Shown here one piece after another: positions 1-36,249 of a stretch of DNA of 37,183 nucleotides. The DNA is taken from IMG/VR virus record IMGVR_UViG_2537562195_000008; one strand, given 5' to 3'. Every line of letters begins with the position of its first letter. Position 1 is the first letter of the stretch. Both the position numbers and the translations under genes were made by a program. The stretch is from a virus (Duplodnaviria; Heunggongvirae; Uroviricota; Caudoviricetes). The notes beneath the pieces were generated by a model, which ran no database searches, was not told the DNA's origin, and saw nothing but the letters and a program-made list of their open reading frames with translations.

Positions 1-1053
1 TTACGGGGTAATGCCAACCGCTGCCGCCACTTTGTCGCCACTTGGCAGCGTTGCCAGAGGATTGAAACGGAGCGCCGTTTCCAGATGATCCGGTGCCAGA
101 TGTGCGTAACGCATAGTCATTTTTATATCGTGGTGTCCGAGAATTTTTTGTAAGGCCAGAATGTTTCCACCCGACATCATGAAGTGCGCCGCAAACGTAT
201 GGCGCAGAACGTGTGTGAGTTGACCGCGAGGGAGCACGATAGACGTTTTTTCCATCACTGATAAAAATTGAAAATAGCAGTCTGTGAAGAAATTGAACCC
301 ATCAAGCGCCATGATCTCTTCGTAAAGCTCTTTACTGATAGGGATGCTTCTGTTTTTCTTCCCCTTCGTTCTGACAAAGGTAATTCGGTATTTGGTCACC
401 TGTGAGCGAGTAAGATTTACGGCTTCACGCCAGCGTGCGCCTGTGCTTAAGCATATCTTAACTACCAGTGCCAGAATTGGGTCCTGACGTTTGCAATCAG
501 CCAGCAATTCAACAATCTGCTCATGGGTAAGCCATGCCATCTCTTTTTCTGCGATGGTGAATTTTCGCATGTTCTCCAGTGGGTTCGGATACGACCATTC
601 GCCCAGACGGGATAGTTCGCTAAAAACACTACTTAGATAGCTTTGCTCCAGGTTAATGGTGACCGGGCTTGCTCCTTTCTTCCATTTCTCGCTGAAGTAG
701 ATCTCGCCTGTCAGGCGTTTATCTCGATAGTGGGCAAACATTTTAGAGGTGAGATCGGTTGCAAGAGGATTGCCCAGAGCGTCAACCATCAACAGCAATT
801 TGTCATAGACATGCTGCCCAGCTGTCAGAGATTTACCATGTAGTTTGAACCATAGTTCAACCACGTCTTTCAGTGTTCGACGATCCACTGATTCACCCAG
901 CCAGGGCTTTGCTTCGGTTTCTTCCATCGTGTGACGCTCAAAAGCCAGAGCTTCGCCTTTGGTGGCGAATTGTTTACGCACACGACGTCCACTACGTCCG
1001 GCGGGGTAACATTCGCAAAGCCATTTTCCTGTGGTGAGTTTTCGTACTGCCAT
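1..1053 (-). CDS. int: Tyrosine integrase (P2/186-like site-specific recombinase)
   Basis: 350-aa ORF; C-terminal catalytic region with conserved R...HxxR...Y pattern (ARWREA..., LRHTFAAHF..., MRYAHL) typical of phage integrases; first gene of prophage next to att repeat. Confidence 0.9.
   Translation of the reverse strand: MAVRKLTTGKWLCECYPAGRSGRRVRKQFATKGEALAFERHTMEETEAKPWLGESVDRRTLKDVVELWFKLHGKSLTAGQHVYDKLLLMVDALGNPLATDLTSKMFAHYRDKRLTGEIYFSEKWKKGASPVTINLEQSYLSSVFSELSRLGEWSYPNPLENMRKFTIAEKEMAWLTHEQIVELLADCKRQDPILALVVKICLSTGARWREAVNLTRSQVTKYRITFVRTKGKKNRSIPISKELYEEIMALDGFNFFTDCYFQFLSVMEKTSIVLPRGQLTHVLRHTFAAHFMMSGGNILALQKILGHHDIKMTMRYAHLAPDHLETALRFNPLATLPSGDKVAAAVGITP
19..40. repeat. attL: Putative attL core: 22-bp direct repeat CGCTGCCGCCA(C/A)TTTGTCGCCA shared with 34329..34350
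   Basis: Same 22-mer with one mismatch occurs at both prophage ends; the left copy lies inside the last codons of int, as is typical for P2-like att cores. Confidence 0.6.
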
Positions 1054-1136: not shown

Positions 1137-2813
1137 CTAAGCAACATGCAGTTCATCGTTGGCGGAAGTTGCTGCTTTGCGCTCTTGCTCAATCGCCAGT
1201 GACTCTCTATATTCTTTCGCTTCCGCAAACATTGTCCATTGTGCGTTGATGTTCATATCTTCAATAACAGACTTAATTTCTTTAATATTTACGTTGAAAA
1301 ACTCTTTTCGTGAGTTAATTTTATTGACCTGTTTTTCGTTGAAGACTTTATGCAGATGATTTTCTAATGATGGTGCATCATCACTATAAATCATCGCATG
1401 AACATCGAACGAAAAAGGAACACTAGCATCACCGAGTTCACGAACACGATCAAGTGGTTCAAGGCGGCGTGTCATTCCAATTTTATATACATCTTCGCCA
1501 AATGAGCCAATATTACTAATTATATAAACGTGGCCTGATCTAGTTTGTTGAGCCATAGAAATAGCTCGTTGGTTTTTAGCTTCAGCTTCTTCATATTTTA
1601 ACTGTAGTTCAGCTATTTTTTGCTCTAAAGCTAAGCGTTGTTCTTCATTTGCAAGCATAAGCTCTTTTGTTGCTTTATTTATAGCTTGCTGAATAGCTTT
1701 CTCTTCTTTTTCAGCTTCTTTTATCGCTTTTTCATACTCCCTACGAGCTCTTTCCTCTTCACGAAGTTGTTCTTTAATCCTTCTTTGCTCTTCTTTTTCT
1801 TCGAGCATAATTTCATTAACTGCAACTCCCCATTTTAGCTCGTTGAGTCGAGCTTGAAGATAGATGTCACTTATTTTTGCGGACCTAAAGGCAGAACCAT
1901 TGTAATTTACAAGTTGAAACGCATCTTTTATCTCTTGGGAAAGTTTTCCAAAATTGTTGTGTTTGACTTTTGATAAAATACTGTCAACTCTTCCATTGAA
2001 GGCATCTAAAACAAAGTTGATAGCAGTATTACGCCTGTTTTGTTCAACATAATCACACGAAGCAGCTTTATTAGTTTTTATTAATGATTTTGTTAACTCC
2101 CTGGCTTTTTGTAATTCCTTACCTGCATCTGTAAACTCATAATTTTCTGCCAATTCATCGAGAACGCTACGGTTAGGGATGATCCATTCATCACCATAAC
2201 CTTCAATTTTATTTTTCATTGATTTGGCAACTGCTTCATATTTTTCTGCAAACTCTTTAGCTTCATATGCTGAACCAGCAATCTCTTTTGCTCTTTCTTC
2301 TGCATCGGAAATAATTTTCACTGCATTGTCATTAGCATTTGAGATCAGCTCATTTGCTTTACTATTGGCATTATCAAGACGTTCTTTAGCTTTCAGGCGT
2401 GCATCGCGAGCGTCTTTAGTAATTGCTATAGCTTCGCTATTAGCGTTGCTTATTTTTATCTGAGCTTGATAATTTGCTTCGTTTACTGTCTTAGCAGCCT
2501 TTATTTGGGCTTCTTCTATTTTTTGCCTGGCTATTGAGTCTGCATTTTTTATCTTATTCTCTGCTTCCATCACTGCGCTGTGCAATTCTACGTATTGCCA
2601 TAATGGCGCAGCTCGTCCTTCAAGCTCTGATAGATCTCGTACAGTCTGTGCTAATTCTTCTTGATTTTCTTTCAGTTGGTTGGAAAGGGCTATGTTGTTA
2701 GCTGTCAAGGTATTTATAGCCGCTTTATGTTTTTTGCTTTGCTTAAATAATATTACAGCTAGAATGGGGGCGAGAAATGCTAATAAGAATATAACGATGG
2801 AAAATGAATTCAT
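1137..2813 (-). CDS. Membrane-anchored coiled-coil protein with DUF4041-like region and C-terminal T5orf172/MUG113 (GIY-YIG-like) domain; cargo gene
   Basis: 558 aa; N-terminal hydrophobic helix (IVIFLLAFLAPILAVILF); long E/K/A/Q-rich coiled coil; C-terminus GHVYIISNIGSFGEDVYKIGMTRRLEPLDRVRELGDASVPFSFDVHAMIYSDD...LHKVF matches the T5orf172 signature from memory; AT-rich relative to flanks. Confidence 0.7.
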   Translation of the reverse strand: MNSFSIVIFLLAFLAPILAVILFKQSKKHKAAINTLTANNIALSNQLKENQEELAQTVRDLSELEGRAAPLWQYVELHSAVMEAENKIKNADSIARQKIEEAQIKAAKTVNEANYQAQIKISNANSEAIAITKDARDARLKAKERLDNANSKANELISNANDNAVKIISDAEERAKEIAGSAYEAKEFAEKYEAVAKSMKNKIEGYGDEWIIPNRSVLDELAENYEFTDAGKELQKARELTKSLIKTNKAASCDYVEQNRRNTAINFVLDAFNGRVDSILSKVKHNNFGKLSQEIKDAFQLVNYNGSAFRSAKISDIYLQARLNELKWGVAVNEIMLEEKEEQRRIKEQLREEERARREYEKAIKEAEKEEKAIQQAINKATKELMLANEEQRLALEQKIAELQLKYEEAEAKNQRAISMAQQTRSGHVYIISNIGSFGEDVYKIGMTRRLEPLDRVRELGDASVPFSFDVHAMIYSDDAPSLENHLHKVFNEKQVNKINSRKEFFNVNIKEIKSVIEDMNINAQWTMFAEAKEYRESLAIEQERKAATSANDELHVA

Positions 2814-2833: not shown

Positions 2834-3430
2834 TTAATTTGAAACTATTGTACTTCTTATACAAGCAACTACTTCAATATCAGAAAATGCACATTCAAAG
2901 CTATTCTCTGTACTTGTAATTTTAATCATACCTTTTGGAAGCTTTGTGATTTTTCGAATGGAATAGGTTCCGTCGATGTTGATTAACCAGTGCCCATCAA
3001 GTACTTCAGAAAATTTTTGATCACAAATGTATGTGACGAGCCCATCCTGAATAACAATTGGTGATGAAAGATTTGCAGGAAGAAATGATGAATCGAAGAC
3101 ATATGAACCATCTTCAATCATTTTGCCTGCGGTAAGGCGAAACTTGGCAAGCTCTTCTGTAGCTGCTGTCAGCGAGCTTTGCTTAAGGCCTTGCCCGGTG
3201 GTTAACCATTTCAGTGAGGTTCCTGTTTCAAGAGCACATTGGATTATCCAGTCTGCAGGAAACGTATCCCGCAAATACCTGTTCGCCAGAGTGCTTTTTG
3301 ATACTTCCAAGTGATCAGCTAAAGCCTGTCGTGTCGTAAAGCCATAAGCTTCGACTAATCGCTCAATCGCAGCCTTACCACCTTTATTGGGATTTATTTT
3401 GATCTCATTTGGGTACTTTGATGTTGACAT
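2834..3430 (-). CDS. cI: Immunity repressor CI (186-type: N-terminal HTH, C-terminal oligomerisation domain)
   Basis: 198 aa; resembles 186 CI as recalled (…EAYGF…LA..L.VS.STLANRY…CALETG..L.WL.TG…); divergent from the early lytic operon. Confidence 0.8.
   Translation of the reverse strand: MSTSKYPNEIKINPNKGGKAAIERLVEAYGFTTRQALADHLEVSKSTLANRYLRDTFPADWIIQCALETGTSLKWLTTGQGLKQSSLTAATEELAKFRLTAGKMIEDGSYVFDSSFLPANLSSPIVIQDGLVTYICDQKFSEVLDGHWLINIDGTYSIRKITKLPKGMIKITSTENSFECAFSDIEVVACIRSTIVSN
3406..3418. promoter_or_regulatory. Putative operator repeat copy 1 (CATTTGGGTACTT) in the cI/apl switch region
   Basis: Exact 13-bp direct repeat with 3465..3477, about 59 bp apart, flanking the cI start and the divergent pR region. 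Confidence 0.4.
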
Positions 3431-9577: not shown

Positions 9578-10048
9578 ATGTCTATCGAGGAAAAATTTTT
9601 TAGTGATATCGATTTAAAAGATCCGTTTTTTAACAGCCTAAGAGCTGATTATGAAGGATTTGATGTTTGGTTTCTCTCAAAAGGTAAAAATAAGGCGTTT
9701 GTATCACGTAATGAATTAGGTGAAATCGATGGTTTTCTCTATTTGAAAATAGAAGATGAAGAGTTGAGTGATATGACTCCAACGTTTCCAAAGATGAAGC
9801 GAGTAAAGCTTGGCACATTTAAAATCGATGCTCATGGAACCAAACTTGGAGAGCGTTTTATTAGAATTATGTTTCAATTTGCTATGAGAAACAAACTAAA
9901 AGAAGTATATGTTACTATATTTGATAAGCATTCAGGGTTAATTCGCTTATTAACTAAATATGGTTTTGTTTTAAAGGCGAGGAAAAATCTTTCTACGATT
10001 AATGGGCAAGAAGGTGTATACTTTAAAAACTTGGTATGGAAGGAGTAA
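9578..10048 (+). CDS. Hypothetical protein, possibly GNAT-fold N-acyltransferase-like; island gene 1
   Basis: 156 aa; C-terminal half (…KLGTFKIDAHGTKLGERFIRIMFQFA…EVYVTIFDKHSGLIRLLTKYGFVL) resembles GNAT motifs A/B; AT-rich. Confidence 0.5.
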   Translation: MSIEEKFFSDIDLKDPFFNSLRADYEGFDVWFLSKGKNKAFVSRNELGEIDGFLYLKIEDEELSDMTPTFPKMKRVKLGTFKIDAHGTKLGERFIRIMFQFAMRNKLKEVYVTIFDKHSGLIRLLTKYGFVLKARKNLSTINGQEGVYFKNLVWKE

Positions 10049-10051
10049 AAA

Positions 10052-10633
10052 ATGAGCTATGCTAATTATCCCTTAGTCAAATTGCAGGGGAGAAATTATT
10101 TATTAAGTATTTATCCTGCATGGCATACACGTCTTTTCCCTGAGTCAAAACTCCACAATGAGAGTGCTGGTATCATCGCTGATATATCACATACCAACAG
10201 TATTGAAAAAGTATACTTAACAAAAATGCATGGGGTAGCCAGCCTAAAGCCTGGAGATAATTTGCTTATTTATCGTACTTCAGATGGACAAGGTCCAGCT
10301 CGGTTTAGATCTGTTGCAACTTCAGTGTGTGTGGTTCAGGAAATTAAAGATATTCACGATTTCTTAACTTATGAGGAATTTAAGAATTACTGTGAACCTT
10401 ATAGCGTTTTTGATGAAGATGAGTTACAGCTTCTATATATGAAAAAAAATTATCCGATAATTATACGGTTTACTTATAATTTCCCTTTGGAAAAAAGAGT
10501 TATTCGTGATGAAATCATGAATATTACAGGTTATACCAATAGTGATTATTGGGGTTTTTTACCACTAACTGATTCAGCATTTAAGCAGATTGTCTTACAG
10601 GGAGGTGTTGATGAAAGTTTTATTATCGATTAA
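10052..10633 (+). CDS. Hypothetical protein; island gene 2
   Basis: 193-aa ORF tightly linked (4-nt gap) to the upstream gene; no motif recognised; AT-rich. Confidence 0.55.
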   Translation: MSYANYPLVKLQGRNYLLSIYPAWHTRLFPESKLHNESAGIIADISHTNSIEKVYLTKMHGVASLKPGDNLLIYRTSDGQGPARFRSVATSVCVVQEIKDIHDFLTYEEFKNYCEPYSVFDEDELQLLYMKKNYPIIIRFTYNFPLEKRVIRDEIMNITGYTNSDYWGFLPLTDSAFKQIVLQGGVDESFIID

Positions 10634-10980
10634 GCCAGAGTATGCAGAGAGTATACTTTCTGGTAAAAAAATATGAGTTTCGGAAAAATATTTTTAGAAA
10701 TAAAAATGTTGATACGATAGTTATTTACGCAACGATGCCGGTTGGCAAAGTAATAGGTGAATTTAAAGTAGGAGATATTCTTGCTCTATCCCCTTCAGAA
10801 TTGTGGGATAAAACGAAAGCTCATGCAGGAATTACACATTCTTTTTTTAAAGATTATTTCCACCAAAGAGAAAAGGCTTTTGCTATTTCCATCAAAAGCC
10901 CTAAAAGATATAAATTCCCTGTCGACTTAAATGAGTTGATTCCCGGCGGCGTCGCCCCACAGTCTTATCGTTATTTATAA
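10611..10980 (+). pseudogene. ASCH/PUA-like domain protein interrupted by a frameshift at an A7 tract; island gene 3
   Basis: ATG at 10611 encodes MKVLLSIKPEYAESILSGKK then hits TGA; the listed ORF 10642..10980 continues in another frame with …YEFRKN…IVIYATMPVGKVIGEFKVGDIL…AFAISIKSPKRYKFPVDL…; together they form a typical ASCH domain; the frames meet at poly-A 10665..10671. Confidence 0.5.
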
Positions 10981-11520
10981 TGTTGTCTGGGCATGTTTCT
11001 TAACCATGCCCAGTTTTTCTAGGGCAATAGATAAATCGTTTGTTGTTGGGGATTCTAAGATAATTAATGGTACATTGATTTTATTTGTAACATATTTTGC
11101 GTTTTCTCTTTCAGCTTCCATCAGCTTATTTAAATCATAAGTAATATCACTCCCATCTCGTTTCATTATTCGTTCTCTAATTGTATCGGGAGACTCCTCA
11201 ACTAAAATTACTCCATCTAGCCCCATTTCCTCAAATACTTCTTGCTTGAGAACTTCAATATCTCCATTTTTATTTATTAAGGTAAAATGACCATCCAATA
11301 AAATATTGGATACCTTTGACTTTAATGCATTAAGTGCCGTAAGTAATATTGATTGGTTTTTATCAGGTGTGGCCGTTAACTTACTGTTATCAAATTTAAT
11401 ATTAGAATTATTTTTTATAAGTTCGCTTGCGCTTACATGAGTTACCCCGAAATCATCTTTTGCAAATGAACACAAGTAACCTTTGCCTACACCATGAACA
11501 CCTGCTATGAAAATTAACAT
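10975..11520 (-). CDS. P-loop NTPase, nucleotide/nucleoside kinase-like; island gene 4
   Basis: 181 aa; Walker A GVHGVGKG at the N-terminus, hhhhD Walker B-like ILLDGHF; size and layout like small adenylate/dNMP kinase-like ATPases; RBS GGAGG upstream. Confidence 0.6.
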   Translation of the reverse strand: MLIFIAGVHGVGKGYLCSFAKDDFGVTHVSASELIKNNSNIKFDNSKLTATPDKNQSILLTALNALKSKVSNILLDGHFTLINKNGDIEVLKQEVFEEMGLDGVILVEESPDTIRERIMKRDGSDITYDLNKLMEAERENAKYVTNKINVPLIILESPTTNDLSIALEKLGMVKKHAQTTL

Positions 11521-11585: not shown

Positions 11586-11963
11586 ATGAAGTTTCAAGCT
11601 ATATCGATTTTGACTCCAGCGGTAGAAAATATTATAAATGGTTCTAAATCTATCGAAATACGGTCGTGGTATCCTGAAACGATACCATTAAAAAACGTCA
11701 TTCTTGTTCAGAATGATAAATATCTTAAAAATCAAAGCGATATAGATCATGGGGTGGCTATGGCTATTGTCGATTTTGTTTCAGTTAGAAATTGGTCATA
11801 TGAGGATTACTTAAAACAAAACCAAGAAACAACTCTTAATAAGCCTTGGTCTCCAGGTTATTATGTGTGGGAAATTAAAAATGTTAGAATTTTAAAAAAA
11901 TCTATTCCTTGTGTGGCGAGGAAAGGTATTTATACAATAGATTTAAATATGGATTATATATAA
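11586..11963 (+). CDS. ASCH/PUA-like domain protein; island gene 5
   Basis: 125 aa; …SKSIEIRSW… and C-terminal …YVWEIKNVRILKKSIPCVARKGIYTIDL match the ASCH pattern (Y-x-W-x-L…P…kG.qgi) from memory. Confidence 0.6.
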   Translation: MKFQAISILTPAVENIINGSKSIEIRSWYPETIPLKNVILVQNDKYLKNQSDIDHGVAMAIVDFVSVRNWSYEDYLKQNQETTLNKPWSPGYYVWEIKNVRILKKSIPCVARKGIYTIDLNMDYI

Positions 11964-11974
11964 GGTATTGTGAG

Positions 11975-12766
11975 ATGTGTGGTGCCATTCTTCGAAATAT
12001 TAAGCGTTATGCCATTATTTATTCACTGTTGTTTTTGGCTTTTATTTTAATGCTGATAGTGTTTGTTAGCTATGTTTGTAAATTTGGAATGTATTCATGG
12101 AGTGATTCCGTAGAGAAATGGGGACAGTTTGGCGATTATATTGGTGGTGTACTGAATCCTGCTCTGGCCTTTATCTCTATCATGCTTGTTTGTTTCACAC
12201 TATATTCTACATCTAGGCAGTCATCTATTCAGTCATTCGAGTCTGTGTTATTTGAGTTACTAAGATTTCATAAAGATAACTTATCAGAAATTAAAACAAC
12301 GTATTCAGATGGAAAAGTGTATGTAGGACGGGAGGCTCTTTCATTATACATTACCGAAGTGAAGTTTAACCTACTTAATATTGTGGATGATTCACTTCCT
12401 TTGGATGAAAGGTTAGAGCTTTCAGTTAATATGGTTTATCTGGAAGGTGACAATTTTGCGAATGTGGGACATTATTTCAGGAATATTTACCATATTTTTA
12501 AACATATCAATGACTCTAACTATTTGACTGAGAAAGAAAAAACCAAGTATGCGAAATTAGTTAGAGCACAAATATCTTCTATAGAATCTGGCGCGATGCT
12601 ATTAAATGGTTTTTCATCGGTAGGAAAGCCTGCCAAGAAATTTATTGAAAAATATTCTCTCCTTCAGGGGTTTAGTTTAAGTAAGGAATTCAAGCAGCAA
12701 TTACATGATTTAGGTGCCTTAAAATTATACGATGACGTTGCTTATGAGGATAAAAAAGGGCATTAA
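11975..12766 (+). CDS. Membrane protein with two N-terminal TM helices and a cytoplasmic domain (candidate effector); island gene 6
   Basis: Internal ATG of ORF 11909..12766; hydrophobic helices IIYSLLFLAFILMLIVFVSYV and IGGVLNPALAFISIMLVCFTLY; stop overlaps the convergent portal gene stop. Confidence 0.55.
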   Translation: MCGAILRNIKRYAIIYSLLFLAFILMLIVFVSYVCKFGMYSWSDSVEKWGQFGDYIGGVLNPALAFISIMLVCFTLYSTSRQSSIQSFESVLFELLRFHKDNLSEIKTTYSDGKVYVGREALSLYITEVKFNLLNIVDDSLPLDERLELSVNMVYLEGDNFANVGHYFRNIYHIFKHINDSNYLTEKEKTKYAKLVRAQISSIESGAMLLNGFSSVGKPAKKFIEKYSLLQGFSLSKEFKQQLHDLGALKLYDDVAYEDKKGH

Positions 12767-20313: not shown

Positions 20314-20707
20314 AGCGGTGCCTTATGTCCGCAATAATCCGGACAAACTGCATCTGTTTGTGGATAACGGTTCGCTGGTTGCTACGGGGGCCAGCTCCAT
20401 GTCATGGGAGTACCGTTACACCCTAAACGTGGTGATTGAGGATTTCAGCGGCGACCAGAATCTGTTGATGGCCCCGGTTTTGCTGTGGCTGCGGGATAAC
20501 CAGCCTGATGCCATCAATAACCCGGCGTTACGGGAAAAGTTATTCACCTTTGAGGTGGATATTTTGCGCAACGATGTCTGTGATATCAGCCTTAACCTGC
20601 AACTGACGGAGCGTGTGCTGGTCAGCACTGACGGCGGTATATCAACGGTCAAGGCAAAGCCGGAACCTGACGAGCCAGAAGAAACGTGGACGGTGAAACG
20701 TGGATAA
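20255..20707 (+). CDS. R: Tail completion protein R (P2 gpR family)
   Basis: …LHLFVDNGSLVATGASSMSWEYRYTLNVVIEDFSGDQNLLMAPVLLWLRDNQPD… resembles P2 gpR as recalled; the true start may be the GTG at about 20276 (preceded by AGGAG). Confidence 0.75.
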   Translation: MRVRSETVNKPQSLRHALNKAVPYVRNNPDKLHLFVDNGSLVATGASSMSWEYRYTLNVVIEDFSGDQNLLMAPVLLWLRDNQPDAINNPALREKLFTFEVDILRNDVCDISLNLQLTERVLVSTDGGISTVKAKPEPDEPEETWTVKRG

Positions 20708-21155
20708 TCTGCATAAAGTGGATGAGTGGCTGGCAGTGCTGCTGGCGAATCTGGAGCCGGCTGCTCGTCAGCGCATGATGCGCGAACTGGCGCAAGAACT
20801 GCGTCGGACACAACAGCAGAACATCAGGCTGCAACGTAATCCTGATGGAACCGGCTACGAGCCGCGAAAAGTCACGGCACGGACTAAAAAGGGGCGTATT
20901 AAGCGACAGATGTTTTCGAAATTGCGTACAGCGAAGTACCTGAAAACTGCAGCCAGCGCGGATTCAGCCAGCGTGCAGTTTGAAGGGAAAGTTCAACGGA
21001 TTGCACGGGTACATCATTACGGTCTTCGTGATCGAGTAAGCCGTAAGGGACCGGTAGTGAGTTATGTAGAGCGTCGTTTGTTAGGATTCGATAAGAAAAT
21101 TAACAAAAATATACTAGAAGGGTTGCTCAGGATTTTTGATGACTATTTGCCTTAG
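20700..21155 (+). CDS. S: Tail completion/virion morphogenesis protein S (P2 gpS family)
   Basis: 151 aa; GTG start overlapping R stop; canonical position; the 3' end runs into AT-rich DNA. Confidence 0.7.
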   Translation: MDNLHKVDEWLAVLLANLEPAARQRMMRELAQELRRTQQQNIRLQRNPDGTGYEPRKVTARTKKGRIKRQMFSKLRTAKYLKTAASADSASVQFEGKVQRIARVHHYGLRDRVSRKGPVVSYVERRLLGFDKKINKNILEGLLRIFDDYLP

Positions 21156-21254
21156 CTTCAAGTTTTAAATATTGTAAATTTTAGATTGGTTGGTTTTGTT
21201 TGTTATTCTAATGAGATGAATTAAAGTTTGTTTTTAAGTTTATTTTTTATTATG

Positions 21255-21283
21255 CTGAAACCTCATAAATGATGAGGTTTCAG
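21255..21283 (+). promoter_or_regulatory. 12-bp perfect stem-loop (CTGAAACCTCAT-aaatg-ATGAGGTTTCAG) ending 2 nt before the HExxH gene start
   Basis: Perfect inverted repeat read directly; the only GAGG near the ATG lies inside the 3' arm. Confidence 0.5.
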
Positions 21284-21284
21284 T

Positions 21285-22337
21285 ATGATTAAATTAATGT
21301 CTGAATATAATGATGATTATAAAAAACTAGAAAGATATATTGAAGAGTATATTATAAGGAATAGTCTAGGCACTCAGGTATATAAAGAGGATCAGTTGGC
21401 TCAGTCATTAAATAGTGATGAGGGTTTTTCTTATGTGCGTAATAAAATGGATAATTTACCTTCTGATTGTATTGAAGAGTTATCAAACAATATTCAAGGT
21501 GTAGTTACTCTTCCAACAATCTATGATGATCGTGTGAGTTATAGCATTGCATCTCGCTTGATGAGTAAGGTTGAATTAGTAGCAAAGATATTTCCTTTTG
21601 ATCACCAAAACTATGGTGGGTTTTGTTGTGCTCCAACCGGCAGAGTTAGTGCACTTGCCGCGCCAGTTAAATGCCTAGACGGAAAGTCAAAGGTTTTCAC
21701 AATTTTTGAGTCTGGGATTTTTCAATTTATTCATGGTGTAATTAGTTTGTTTGTTAGCAGTTATCCTAATACTCTTCTGCAAGGTAGTAGTGAAAAAGAG
21801 TGGCGGTCAGAGTGGGAAAAATATTTGAGTAGTGAGCAGAATAGAAGCGCTTTATTACAAAGCAAGATTGACTTAAACGAATGGAGGGATTTTTTTAAGA
21901 ATTACAATGTACGTGGTGAACTTGCTTATACATCGATAATTAACTTCGGTCCTGTAGGGCAAAAGATTATATATAATATGGTCTTTGGCTGTGAGTTATT
22001 CGTAGCCGCTCATGAATATTCTCATGCCATGATGAATCATCAGCAGCCTGATTTAGTTGAATCAGAGGTTGAGAAGGAGGCTGACAAATGGGGGATTAGG
22101 ATTGCGTCCATTATATGTGAAGGTGAAGGTATTCTGATGATTCTTGCGATTGCTGGAATAGCTATATTTTTTTCGGCAATTGAAACGTCTGATCCATCTC
22201 ACTATTTACCAGCAGCTGAACGAATATTGTTCGTGATAAAGTCCTTGGAGATCTCTGATCCTATTAAGGAAAAAACTCTTATTGATATTTCTTGTTTAAT
22301 GCAGGATATATTTTCCGACATTATTAATTTTGAATGA
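21285..22337 (+). CDS. Putative Zn-dependent metallopeptidase (HExxH) with C-terminal hydrophobic helix; cargo gene between S and V
   Basis: 350 aa; motif AAHEYSHAMMNH with downstream acidic residues (EVEKEADKWG); hydrophobic stretch ILMILAIAGIAIFFSAI; strongly AT-rich. Confidence 0.6.
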   Translation: MIKLMSEYNDDYKKLERYIEEYIIRNSLGTQVYKEDQLAQSLNSDEGFSYVRNKMDNLPSDCIEELSNNIQGVVTLPTIYDDRVSYSIASRLMSKVELVAKIFPFDHQNYGGFCCAPTGRVSALAAPVKCLDGKSKVFTIFESGIFQFIHGVISLFVSSYPNTLLQGSSEKEWRSEWEKYLSSEQNRSALLQSKIDLNEWRDFFKNYNVRGELAYTSIINFGPVGQKIIYNMVFGCELFVAAHEYSHAMMNHQQPDLVESEVEKEADKWGIRIASIICEGEGILMILAIAGIAIFFSAIETSDPSHYLPAAERILFVIKSLEISDPIKEKTLIDISCLMQDIFSDIINFE

Positions 22338-22460
22338 TTTTTCTCGTAAGTACGCAGTGAAAATACTGTGTACTTTCTACTTAATTTCAGAAGTTTTGTA
22401 TCATTATTAATACAATCCAATCACATCGAATAATTCTAATATGTTGTGCATTATTCTTTT

Positions 22461-23039
22461 ATGAACGCACAAATCACAGAAATCATGCGCCTTATCACCA
22501 ACCTGATCCGCACTGGGGTAGTCACCGAAGTGGACCGGGAAAACTGGCTTTGCCGGGTGAAAACGGGCGACCTTGAAACCAACTGGATCAGCTGGCTGAC
22601 GCTGCGTGCCGGGAATGCCCGCACATGGTGGCGACCATCGGAAGGTGAACAGGTGGTGCTGCTGAGTCTGGGAGGTAATCTGGAAACAGCCTTTGCGCTG
22701 CCCGCTGTCTATTCGAATCAGTTCGCACCACCGTCGACGTCGGCGGATGCCTGCGTGATAGAACATCCTGACGGTGGCTGGTTTGAATACGAACCAGCCA
22801 CTGGGCGCTGGTATGTCAGGGGCATCAAATCAATGGTCATTGAGGCCGCCGACAATATCACCCTGAAAACCAGTGAGTTTGTGCTGGAGGCTGACCGCAC
22901 GCGTATTAACAGCGAAGTGGTGATCAATGGTGGCGTTACCCAGGGCGGAGGAGCGATGAGTTCTAACGGGATCGTGGTTGATGCGCATCAGCATACTGGC
23001 GTTCTGAAAGGCGGCGACACAACCGGAGGCCCGGTATGA
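22461..23039 (+). CDS. V: Baseplate spike/assembly protein V (P2 gpV family)
   Basis: …IRTGVVTEVD…CRVKTG…WLTLRAGNARTWWRPSEGEQVVLLSLGG…TAFALP… resembles P2 gpV as recalled; start chosen at internal ATG. Confidence 0.8.
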   Translation: MNAQITEIMRLITNLIRTGVVTEVDRENWLCRVKTGDLETNWISWLTLRAGNARTWWRPSEGEQVVLLSLGGNLETAFALPAVYSNQFAPPSTSADACVIEHPDGGWFEYEPATGRWYVRGIKSMVIEAADNITLKTSEFVLEADRTRINSEVVINGGVTQGGGAMSSNGIVVDAHQHTGVLKGGDTTGGPV

Positions 23040-34563: not shown

Positions 34564-36249
34564 TTATCCTAATCCTGGCCATACCATGACGATGATTGTC
34601 CCTGCCAGCGTCAGCAGGACGTTGGCGATTGCGTAGGTGCCCGCATAGCCCAGCGCAGGGATGTTACTGCGAGCTGTATCACTGATGATCTCCATTGCCG
34701 GCGCGCAGGTGCGTGCGCCCATCATTGCGCCGAACAACAGTGCGCGGTTCATTCGCAATACATAAGCACCGAACAAGAAACAGATAACCACGGGCACAAG
34801 ACTGACAATTAATCCGGCAATCAACATCTGACCGCCAATCGCGCCCAGGCCGTTATTAATACCGCTACCGGCGCTCAGACCAACGCCTGCCATAAACACC
34901 ATCAAGCCGAACTCTTTCACCATGCTTAATGCACCTTGCGGAATGTAACCGAAGGTCGGGTGGTTAGCACGCATAAAGCCCAGCATAATTCCGGCGAATA
35001 ACAACCCGGCAGCGTTCCCCATGCCGAAACTGAATGTGCTGAACTGGAAGGTGATCATCCCGATCATCAGCCCAATAACAAAGAAGGCGCAAAATGCCAG
35101 CAGGTCAGTGACCTGGCTGTGAATCGAGATAAAGCCGATGCGATCGGCGATGGTTTTTACGCGACGGGCATCACCGCTGACTTGTAAAACGTCACCTTTG
35201 TTAAGCACGACGTTGTCATCTATCGGCATCTCAATCTGGCTACGAATGACGCGGTTAAGGAAGCAACCGTGATCGGTCAACTTCAGTTGTGCGAGACGTT
35301 TACCTACAGCGTTATGGTTTTTAACGACCACTTCTTCAGTGACGATACGCATGTCGAGAAGGTCACGATCGAAAACTTCTTTACCGTTACGGAAGCTGGG
35401 ATCGAGTCGGGCATGGGCGTCGGGATAGCCTACCAACGCTATTTCATCGCCCATTTGTAGCACGGCATCACCGTCTGGATTTGCCAGAATCCCGTTACGT
35501 CGAATACGTTCAATGTAGCAGCCGGTTTGTCGATAAATACCCAGTTCACGCAGATTTTTGCCGTCGGTCCAGGCCACCAGCTCCGGGCCGACGCGATAGG
35601 CGCGGATCACCGGTAAATAAACCTTACGGTTGGCATCAGTGTCCAGGCCACGTTCGCGGGCGATTTGCTGGGCGCTGGTCTGTAAGTCCTGATGCTGCAA
35701 TTTCGGCAAGTAACGCGCACCAACAATCAAACTCACCAGACCGATTAAATAGGTTAAGGCATACCCGAGGCTCAGATTATCCAGTGCCAGTGAGAGCTGC
35801 CTGCTTTCCATGCCGAAATGACGCAGTGTATCGCCAGCACCGACCAGAACCGGTGTCGACGTCATAGAGCCTGCTAACATACCGGCCGTCAGGCCAATAT
35901 CCCAGCCAAACAGCTTACCTAACCCTAAGGCGATCACCAGCGCACTGCCAACCATCACCAGTGCTAACATTAGGTAATTTTTCCCATCGCGAAAAAAAAT
36001 GGAAAAAAAGTTCGGTCCGGCTTCGACCCCGACGCAGAAAATAAACAGCATAAAGCCAAGATTAAGCGCATCGGTGTTAATGCTGAAATGTTGTTGGCCT
36101 AATAACAGCGATACGACTAAAACGCCAATGGAATTACCCAGTTGGATCGAACCAAGTCGTAACTTTCCGAGACATAGCCCAAGCGCGAGGACCACAAATA
36201 ATAACAGAATGTAATTCCCATTTAACAATTCGGCGACGTTTATATTCAC
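34564..36249 (-). CDS. ybjL: Putative transport protein YbjL (AspT/YidE/YbjL family, two TrkA-C domains)
   Basis: 561 aa; N-terminus [42 protein letters not shown]… matches E. coli YbjL as recalled. Confidence 0.9.

Follow-up and report, generated by a model that had tools for sequence, protein, structure and literature searches.

The strongly AT-rich stretch that separates the tail genes S and V of the P2-like prophage studied here is a horizontally acquired single-gene cassette of 1.37 kb (positions 21086-22460 of the window, i.e., of the whole 37,183-nucleotide stretch of DNA that was analysed). Its only open reading frame specifies a predicted gluzincin metallopeptidase, the catalytic core of which is homologous, by profile comparison, to that of the Lit protease family. 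Given this Lit-related catalytic half and the position of the gene at a known cargo site, the most likely reading is, by analogy, that of a gene directed against phages and not of one for a part of the tail. Lit cleaves EF-Tu once it has been activated by the Gol peptide of phage T4 and excludes T-even phages; it is among the oldest known abortive-infection proteins and has stood alone in combining, within one protein, the sensing of a phage with killing by proteolysis.

Along the window, GC content is 0.53-0.60 on either side of the block and drops to 0.29-0.39 over about 21000-22400, and by segment the block has values of 0.23-0.35 vs. 0.53-0.57 in its flanks (ORF-to-V spacer, 0.268; whole window, 0.495). 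Together with the PHROG assignments of the flanking products (gpS, PHROG 26; gpV, baseplate) this bears out the strongly AT-rich segment that the initial annotation had seen between S and V. The bounds proposed there, 21156-22440, hold for the AT-rich character but not for the extent, as the foreign block is slightly larger: its left end lies among the final ~22 codons of S, its right end at the start codon of V. This codon is the ATG at 22461, according to the alignment with relatives and RefSeq, and not at 22441 or 22446. The single ORF of 350 amino acids was recovered as described; no credible small ORF was found inside the cassette, and RefSeq annotates the same CDS in E. coli S21 as 'hypothetical protein'. 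A chance ORF in AT-rich DNA was considered and rejected, since dN/dS values of 0.07-0.20 point to purifying selection on the ORF. The cassette and its flanks comprise the following features:

20700-21085, plus strand: conserved body of gene S (tail completion), putative left recombination flank; PHROG 26 with E 5e-45, GC 0.531, relatives alike up to the ERRLLG codons
21086-21155, plus strand: 3' tail of gene S, AT-rich (final 70 nt of gpS, ~22 codons), moving with the cargo cassette; GC 0.30, divergence from relatives begins here
21156-21284, plus strand: leader/spacer between S and the ORF with promoter-like blocks, from the alignment of six leaders; GC 0.233
21249-21289, plus strand: perfect 18-bp hairpin over Shine-Dalgarno sequence and ATG, from RNA folding
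21285-22337, plus strand: ORF for the 350-aa predicted gluzincin metallopeptidase, GC 0.353; ORF call, homologues, model, Lit profile comparison and dN/dS
22011-22025, plus strand: HExxH codons H243-E-Y-S-H247 (zinc-binding/catalytic), invariant in 50 homologues and aligned to Lit H160-E161-H164
22071-22085, plus strand: gluzincin ExxxD codons E263-K-E265-A-D267, with E263 and D267 invariant and aligned to Lit E181 and D185
22128-22184, plus strand: codons of the hydrophobic helix, residues 282-300 (GILMILAIAGIAIFFSAIE); hydropathy and modelled helix
22348-22375, plus strand: terminator-like hairpin directly past the ORF stop codon, from RNA folding
22397-22414, plus strand: TGT-N12-ACA box of the Ogr-type late promoter P_V, 47 nt 5' of the V ATG; box match and operon structure (PMC3931495)
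22461-23039, plus strand: gene V (baseplate), putative right recombination flank; PHROG baseplate assembly protein, RefSeq start, GC 0.565

In P2-like phages S ends the P_O late operon while V begins the P_V operon, and a consensus has been described for the Ogr-type box (PMC3931495). The locus between both genes, orf30, is one of three moron regions of P2, the others being old/tin and Z/fun (PMC6823313; PMC3091744). As the site is a known moron locus at an operon boundary, the segment does not constitute a break within a contiguous tail operon, contrary to what had been assumed. The same position is occupied by a 261-bp ORF in P2 and by a 741-bp ORF in R18C (PMC6823313), as compared with a 1,053-bp protease gene in our case, and AT-rich foreign cargo varying among related phages is a common trait. 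The gap between S and V measures only 68 bp in the closest phages, Escherichia phage 500465-1 and Klebsiella phage 4LV2017. Among 51 sampled E. coli prophages the junction was empty in 27 and filled in 24, one of the latter with the protease cassette and the rest with other cargo, among it TIR, SIR2, Sll1717-type P-loop ATPase, DUF6216 and PcfJ proteins. The content of the S/V site is thus variable and defence-like. The block shares with orf30-type morons the S/V position, absence or difference in close relatives and a deviant composition. The proposal that it is a horizontally acquired moron is upheld by the short junction in the closest phages, by unrelated cargo in other relatives and by its foreign composition; far from being conserved in all relatives, the AT-rich segment is absent from most of them. 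Irrespective of what is carried, every junction with cargo has an AT-rich S tail with a GC content of 0.27-0.30, vs. 0.53 in the empty junction, and phage 500465-1, whose junction is empty, has the same P_V box at the same distance from V. TGT-N12-ACA boxes as such number 12 vs. 9.6 expected, which is not above chance, so that their positions alone are informative.

Defence hotspots within P2 tail genes were located in a 2026 survey (PMC13586616), and recent work on such hotspots has centred on old/tin, Z/fun and the cI-adjacent site rather than on the orf30 locus. The other two hotspots of the same prophage contain PD-Lambda-1 (E 1.5e-119), which occupies the cI-adjacent one in the window, PDC-M11A/B and an AbiC-like gene. 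Guilt by association of this kind is suggestive only with regard to an anti-phage role. The gene is rare: among 5,426 complete genomes of E. coli it occurs in 5, and among 5.8 billion clusters in 7. Neither the 50,697 phage records nor the 72,556 plasmids searched by tblastn gave a match, and no relative was found in species-representative genomes. In a 186-like prophage of Pantoea, a member of the family resides directly 3' of the CI repressor gene, at a distance of 58 bp and on the same strand, a position that corresponds to the cI-int hotspot and is transcribed in lysogens. Distant relatives occur in varied surroundings that cannot clearly be called defence islands. A conserved partner gene (retron reverse transcriptase, HTH, antitoxin) was found neither in the cassette nor near close or distant homologues, which fits a one-protein sensor-effector like Lit.

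Six variants of the cassette have promoter-like blocks in common, TTGTTT at 21228-21233 and, 17 nt further on, TATGCT at 21251-21256. Generic sigma-70 and terminator scans gave nothing above shuffled expectation, and the leader promoter is consequently a putative one. The 18-bp hairpin (-24.8 kcal/mol; z -7.8; none of 200 shuffles equally stable) has an upstream arm that pairs with the Shine-Dalgarno sequence GAGG (21274-21277) and the ATG (21285). It persists in E. coli S21 and, at -20.8, in variant L024 (94% identical), but variants further removed show it weakly or not at all, and a family-wide regulatory element that sequesters the Shine-Dalgarno sequence was rejected, the hairpin being limited to the subclade formed by the window and L024. 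In Rfam, sub-threshold miRNA-like matches were the only ones obtained, and these reflect the shape of the hairpin. The terminator-like hairpin after the ORF has a z of only -2.2 and a poor U-tract, while the homologous hairpins of variants L004 and L008 keep the pairing with different stem sequences and possess better U-tracts.

No convincing terminator was found between S and the ORF, and the gene, located 3' of the late operon, may therefore be expressed as mRNA while the phage itself grows lytically. A protease made late by read-through from P_O, acting either in counter-defence, by destroying a host immune protein, or as a factor in host takeover or lysis timing, would agree with this arrangement, in which the ORF lies on the same strand as, and directly 3' of, the last P_O gene and is followed by the sole terminator-like hairpin; proteases are generally known to serve as anti-defence factors. 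We consider this unlikely, because the read-through transcript would hold the full 18-bp hairpin with Shine-Dalgarno sequence and ATG sequestered, most related phages have no gene at the site, the alternative cargo (TIR, SIR2, P-loop ATPase) is typical of defence and not of counter-defence, the Pantoea homologue is found in a lysogenic cI operon position, and Lit, the nearest characterised relative, is a defence protein. Both late read-through and a hairpin that blocks the ribosome-binding site are compatible with other roles as well.

At the protein level, the HEYSH...E...E...D motif noted in the initial annotation was confirmed, with HEYSH at residues 243-247 and ExxxD at residues 263-267. 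All of 50 distant homologues have HExxH, E263, D267 and R313 unchanged, and HEYSH is invariant also in the seven close ones; E263 is presumed to be the third zinc ligand. In the predicted structure (pLDDT 90.4, pTM 0.91), a family-specific N-terminal part of ~230 residues, with helices over ~1-100 and beta-sheet over 110-142, precedes a catalytic half of the Lit/M48 type (residues 230-320). M13 and M48 peptidases are its closest structural neighbours, IrrE not being among the top ones, and the gluzincin features of M48, i.e., HExxHxxxxH, the downstream Glu ligand and the HP..R motif, are all present. Active-site motifs and modelled fold therefore agree with the original reading as a metallopeptidase, in which the invariant residues and the profile link to Lit also concur, and characterise the protein as a predicted gluzincin. 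The query itself had no Pfam match at E<=10 (including M48 and M78), whereas 37 of the 50 distant homologues matched Pfam M48 (PF01435) at E<=0.01 (best, 4.7e-8). Sequence-profile matches to M48 in the PDB were weak (E 0.05-0.09), a Foldseek search of the PDB with a first, low-confidence model returned no match below E 0.08, and a search of the BFVD viral structures yielded nothing significant, the weak best matches being zincin and M48-type peptidases.

The C-terminal hydrophobic helix is likewise present (residues 282-300; 19-residue Kyte-Doolittle mean 2.33; residues 285-299 modelled as helix with pLDDT about 98) but is reinterpreted here as a core element of the M48/Lit fold, namely the helix coming after that of the ExxxD motif. 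It aligns with the 'GIATAVLCIQSLE' helix of Lit and with a helix of M48 3c37, and a membrane-spanning anchor was rejected on the grounds that these are core helices, in the case of 3c37 of a soluble protein. Invariant residues on both sides (HExxH and ExxxD before; H307, P309 and R313 after) also render a simple transmembrane anchor unlikely. The protein may nevertheless associate peripherally with the membrane, as Lit has been reported as a membrane protein in work cited in PMC13228613.

The relationship with Lit (MEROPS U49 / PF10463, E. coli e14 prophage) emerged from a comparison by hhalign of a 50-sequence family profile with a 27-sequence Lit profile (probability 96.3%, E 1.5e-9, 94 columns). 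The invariant residues of both sets coincide (query/Lit: E237/E148, HExxH, H252/H169, E263/E181, D267/D185, G291/G209, R313/R238), and the motif series HExxHxxxxH ... E-[KR]-E-A-D ... G-I-A ... H-P..R is shared with nearly equal spacing. Judged by these profiles, the catalytic cores are homologous. The only match of the query in PADLOC-DB v2 was PDLC03011 'peptidase_U41' (E 2.7e-8, about one third of the model), which is matched by E. coli Lit as well (E 1.5e-10); a search for literature tracing the source system of the model name found none. Comparison of single sequences with Lit is weak, the PADLOC Lit model did not match the query (true Lit, 410 bits), precomputed PF10463 tags on relatives are flagged 'weak', and a solved structure of Lit was not found.

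The alignable part is confined to residues 230-315 of the query and 141-240 of Lit. Upstream of it, the ~230 N-terminal residues of the query have no sequence counterpart in Lit and the ~140 N-terminal residues of Lit are missing in the query, the total lengths being 350 and 297 aa, respectively. In addition, lit adjoins the e14 integrase gene while the query is located in a P2 tail-gene hotspot. An orthologue of Lit that cleaves EF-Tu and is triggered by a Gol-like peptide from T-even capsids could account for the homologous core with its coinciding invariant residues and for the solitary prophage-borne gene common to both; with an unrelated N-terminal part and 16 bits on the NCBIfam Lit equivalog model (NF007238), the cut-off of which is 274, it is nonetheless a distinctly improbable explanation. 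Sequence identity in the aligned core amounts to only about 21-27%, so that the substrate and the trigger may differ from those of Lit.

We also give little credence to a protease of the ImmA/IrrE type that would cleave a repressor, e.g., the 186-type CI of the prophage (2834-3430), and control induction or another module. ImmA/IrrE/CapP proteins (M78) have roles in phage and immune regulation (PMC13228613) and resemble the query in the zincin pattern HExxH ... E..EA[ND]; 8 of the 50 distant homologues show weak matches to Pfam M78 (IrrE, PF06114; best, 1.8e-4), 5 of the 50 match the PADLOC capP model, and the Pantoea copy, in its position relative to the CI gene, resembles immR-immA pairs. 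However, the query has no M78 match and no HTH or GAF domains, and its best structural neighbours are M13/M48 instead of IrrE. In about ten loci examined no HTH gene adjoins the S/V copy, the flanks being gpS and gpV, and the post-cI position of the Pantoea copy is one of the hotspots already known for cargo, occupied by PD-Lambda-1 in the window. Among the functions put forward in the initial annotation, defence or exclusion is therefore best supported, by inference, while the ImmA/IrrE-like regulator is disfavoured by the missing repressor gene next door. A lysogenic-conversion or housekeeping protease of the M48 type (BepA/HtpX-like quality control) that provides a host fitness trait unrelated to phages is very improbable, as identity to M48 (BepA/YfgC 6sar; 3c37) and M13 (neprilysin, PepO, Zmp1), which are housekeeping enzymes and not phage morons, is only 12-18%, the TPR domain of BepA, the membrane domain of HtpX and the large N-terminal domain of M13 are missing, the model has no further membrane-type segment (the next-best hydropathy windows overlap the same helix), and the gene is extremely rare and patchy, unlike a housekeeping function, and sits in a fast-swapping phage hotspot.

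We lean, with moderate confidence, towards an exchanged single-gene moron cassette at orf30 that encodes a soluble or peripherally membrane-associated gluzincin of a rare, uncharacterised family with a Lit-like role in single-protein exclusion or abortive infection. Besides its one ORF, the cassette carries an AT-rich S tail and a P_V box of its own, together with a leader and the terminator-like hairpin, and cassettes would be swapped via recombination in the conserved S and V genes. The protease would be held scarce or latent in the lysogen; an infecting phage would supply the trigger, sensed plausibly through the family-specific N-terminal part, and the activated protease would cut an essential host or phage protein, by which infection would be stopped. 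The anti-phage role, trigger, substrate and mode of expression are what we infer, as distinct from the anatomy and horizontal origin of the cassette, the fold and active-site motifs, the homology of the core to Lit, the purifying selection and the variable, defence-like content of the site, for which the sequence data speak directly.

A bolder version is put forward tentatively and may well not apply. The protein would represent a new family of single-protein sensor-effector immune proteases in which a Lit-type core is joined to a different N-terminal sensor, responds to another cue and attacks a target other than EF-Tu, and the S/V junction would be a third, largely unexplored P2 defence hotspot with cassettes bringing their own S tail and P_V. 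In the present variant, with the promoter in one arm of the hairpin, the protease might be translatable only from its own lysogenic transcript, the late read-through mRNA being locked and the lytic cycle of the prophage spared.

Should the protein be without anti-phage activity, the finding would be that of an ordinary moron. Otherwise, the S/V junction of P2-like prophages, hardly exploited by recent hotspot surveys, would merit attention as a source of new defence genes, and a diverged family that combines the same catalytic core with another N-terminal half would make it possible to test directly what triggers such proteases and how they select their targets.

With regard to its layout, the window represents a P2-like (Peduoviridae) prophage, whose closest deposited relatives, Escherichia phage 500465-1 (Wadgaonvirus) and Klebsiella phage 4LV2017, share about 91% identity with it over the S and V flanks. 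Its features are as follows.

1-1053 (-): integrase
1137-2813 (-): 558-aa DUF4041 + T5orf172/MUG113 protein matching PD-Lambda-1 (PADLOC, E 1.5e-119), between int and CI in the cI-int hotspot
2834-3430 (-): 186-type CI, followed by gpA
9578-10980 (+): PADLOC candidate system PDC-M11A/B in the old/tin (gpA-portal) hotspot
10975-11520 (-): AAA_17/adenylate-kinase-like protein, gpA-portal hotspot
11909-12766 (+): putAbiC protein (PF16872; PADLOC AbiC, E 1e-5), gpA-portal hotspot
after gpA (-): portal and terminase
after portal and terminase (+): capsid, lysis and tail genes
20700-21155: gpS (PHROG 26, tail completion)
21285-22337 (+): 350-aa ORF, the query
22348-22375: terminator-like hairpin downstream of the ORF; homologues at loci L004 and L008 retain the pairing with different stem sequences
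22397-22414: TGT-N12-ACA box, 47 nt upstream of the V ATG and equally far from it in the empty junction
22461 (start ATG): gpV (PHROG baseplate assembly protein)
34564-36249: host permease gene, last in this order

PDC-M11A is split: ORFs 9578-10048 and 10052-10633 share one frame and correspond to successive stretches of the model, which suggests an in-frame stop, i.e., a pseudogene or read-through.

Between gpS and gpV the GC content drops from 0.53-0.57 to 0.23-0.35 and the query is the one long ORF, in agreement with the strongly AT-rich single-ORF segment described at this position in the initial annotation. The identical CDS in E. coli S21 is a "hypothetical protein" in RefSeq. The boundaries of the cassette were derived from an alignment of the window with the empty junction of phage 500465-1, in which only 68 bp separate S and V, and with two loci carrying 76-79% identical homologues. 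On the left, the match to the empty phage ends at about 21085, directly 3' of the gpS ERRLLG codons, so that the last approximately 22 S codons (21086-21155) belong to the foreign block. On the right, it restarts at ATG 22461, the first codon of V and likewise its annotated start in RefSeq; the GTG at 22446 in a mechanical ORF list was rejected as an over-extension on the basis of both the alignment with relatives and RefSeq. In all cargo-bearing junctions examined the GC content of the S tail is 0.27-0.30 irrespective of the cargo, as opposed to 0.53 in the empty junction (loci compared: the window, L002, L004, L008, L015). Cassettes therefore bring both a C-terminus for S and a P_V Ogr box of their own, an arrangement that points to their exchange through recombination in the conserved genes S and V.

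The consensus of the four Ogr-dependent late promoters of P2, which drive the operons PQ, ONMLKRS, VWJIHG and FI-D, is TGT-N12-ACA (PMC3931495). The window contains 12 matches, a count not above chance, so that only their positions are informative: four lie at the four expected late-promoter places (15561 and 15619 between P and O, 22397 before V, 27089 before FI). From the P_V box before V and the P2 late-operon layout it follows that the S/V junction is an operon boundary and therefore tolerates insertions. The proposed interruption of the tail cluster thus holds as regards its location between S and V, but it does not break a contiguous operon, since two late operons meet here.

S/V corresponds to the P2 "orf30" position, among the three classical moron regions (PMC6823313; PMC3091744). 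An S-V region was matched in 1,054 of 5,426 complete E. coli genomes and this cassette in only five. Of 51 full-length junctions sampled at even intervals along the ranking, 27 were empty (1,855-bp span) and the other 24 fell into more than 10 size classes, one being this cassette and the remainder carrying unrelated cargo annotated as DUF6216, Sll1717-type P-loop ATPase, TIR-domain, SIR2-family and PcfJ-domain proteins and assorted hypotheticals. These figures support the suggested horizontal acquisition and show that cargo at S/V differs between related prophages. DUF6216 at this junction includes the BL21 prophage copy. A 503-aa P-loop protein fills the site in Klebsiella phage Kp4865-2. 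The iLund4u survey and earlier work centre on old/tin, Z/fun and the cI-adjacent site, and the S/V junction looks like an under-explored defence hotspot.

The protein itself is rare. Only seven related clusters were found among 5.8 billion; no relative occurred among phage records, plasmids or species-representative genomes, and IMG/VR contains three. Close homologues (68-94% identity) are all found at the S/V junction of P2-like prophages. In Pantoea sp. SM3640 (CP064872.1; locus L012, 6001-7050) a homologue with 50% identity is located 58 bp downstream of the CI repressor gene of a 186-like prophage, at the cI-int cargo hotspot, a region that lysogens transcribe. The next 6 kb show no integrase, and the prophage may be degraded or its int region replaced. 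Values of dN/dS of 0.07-0.20 against six homologues indicate that the ORF is under purifying selection. An exhaustive profile search yielded 231 representatives, mostly of 375-400 aa; in 50 of these H243, E244, H247, E263, D267 and R313 are invariant, and H252, E237 and H307 nearly so. All motifs of the zincin-like pattern noted initially are present (HEYSH, residues 243-247; E263/E265/D267). HExxH combined with ExxxD is the gluzincin signature, as in thermolysin and neprilysin, and because the query carries it (E263-x-x-x-D267) its prediction as a metallopeptidase is well supported. Structural comparison with known peptidases gave scores of 10.3-10.1 for M13 (PepO, neprilysin, Zmp1), 10.0 for M48 BepA (6sar), 9.6 for M48 3c37, 8.3 for DPP III, about 6 for M1 aminopeptidases and 5.7 for thermolysin.

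Searches with the query gave no match in Pfam or to the PADLOC Lit model, and 16 bits with the NCBIfam Lit model (cut-off 274); single-sequence comparison with E. coli Lit was marginal. Judged by these models, the query is outside the Lit family as curated. Profile-profile comparison of the 50-sequence family with a 27-sequence Lit family gave 96.3% probability (E 1.5e-9, 94 columns; query 230-315, Lit 141-240), and the invariant residues of both families coincide.

Paired invariant residues, query family and Lit family
E237: E148
H243, E244, H247: H160, E161, H164
H252: H169
E263: E181
D267: D185
G291: G209
R313: R238

PADLOC PDLC03011 "peptidase_U41", whose source system or paper was not found in searchable literature, was matched by the query (E 2.7e-8) and by genuine E. 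coli Lit (E 1.5e-10). Lit, for which no structure has been solved, and M48 peptidases share the catalytic core with the query, whereas nothing in Lit corresponds to its N-terminal approximately 230 residues. Site and enzyme class are already known; the protein family is rare, unannotated and diverged from Lit, with a different N-terminal half.

The hydrophobic helix reported near the C-terminus exists (residues 282-300) and its 19-residue hydropathy of 2.33 suffices for a transmembrane prediction, but it is a conserved core helix following the ExxxD helix, modelled at a pLDDT of about 98 and aligning with Lit "GIATAVLCIQSLE" and a helix of the soluble M48 peptidase 3c37. Invariant residues of the catalytic domain flank it on both sides, and a membrane-spanning anchor, which would split the active site, was rejected on these grounds. 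Since Lit is reported as a membrane protein in a citing passage of PMC13228613 (Kao and Snyder 1988), peripheral membrane association of the query is possible by analogy.

The best-supported reading, and on balance a probable one, is that of a prophage-encoded single-protein exclusion or abortive-infection protease acting in a Lit-like mode. It rests on the Lit-homologous catalytic core, the presence of the family at two separate cargo hotspots linked to lysogeny (S/V and cI-int), the classic defence domains of other S/V cargo and the defence genes in the prophage's other two hotspots, PD-Lambda-1 (int-cI) and PDC-M11A/B plus AbiC-like (gpA-portal). A further ground is that the ORF is solitary, with no conserved partner gene at close or distant homologues.

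The expression signals are mostly inferred from sequence. Common to the six aligned leader variants are TTGTTT and TATG(C/A/T)T, separated by 17 nt and followed by GAGG and ATGAT, plausibly a weak sigma-70 promoter that a generic promoter scan did not call. An 18-bp perfect hairpin (21249-21289; -24.8 kcal/mol, z -7.8) pairs the SD and ATG with a 5' arm containing the conserved -10-like box. The hairpin is fully preserved in E. coli S21, slightly altered and still strong (-20.8) in the 94%-identical IMG/VR variant and weak or absent in 68-79% variants, being kept solely at 94-100% identity. Hypothetically, transcription from a promoter belonging to the cassette would begin inside the hairpin and give translatable mRNA, and late read-through mRNA from P_O, containing the hairpin in full, would remain locked.

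Among the rival readings, a late-expressed lytic or counter-defence factor appears unlikely and an ImmA-like repressor protease distinctly improbable. The defence reading includes the narrow case of a strict EF-Tu-cleaving Lit orthologue, which is as improbable as the ImmA-like protease, and a conversion or quality-control M48 protease is less probable still. Should the reading as a Lit-like exclusion protease be true, the query could become a second model for one-protein protease immunity.
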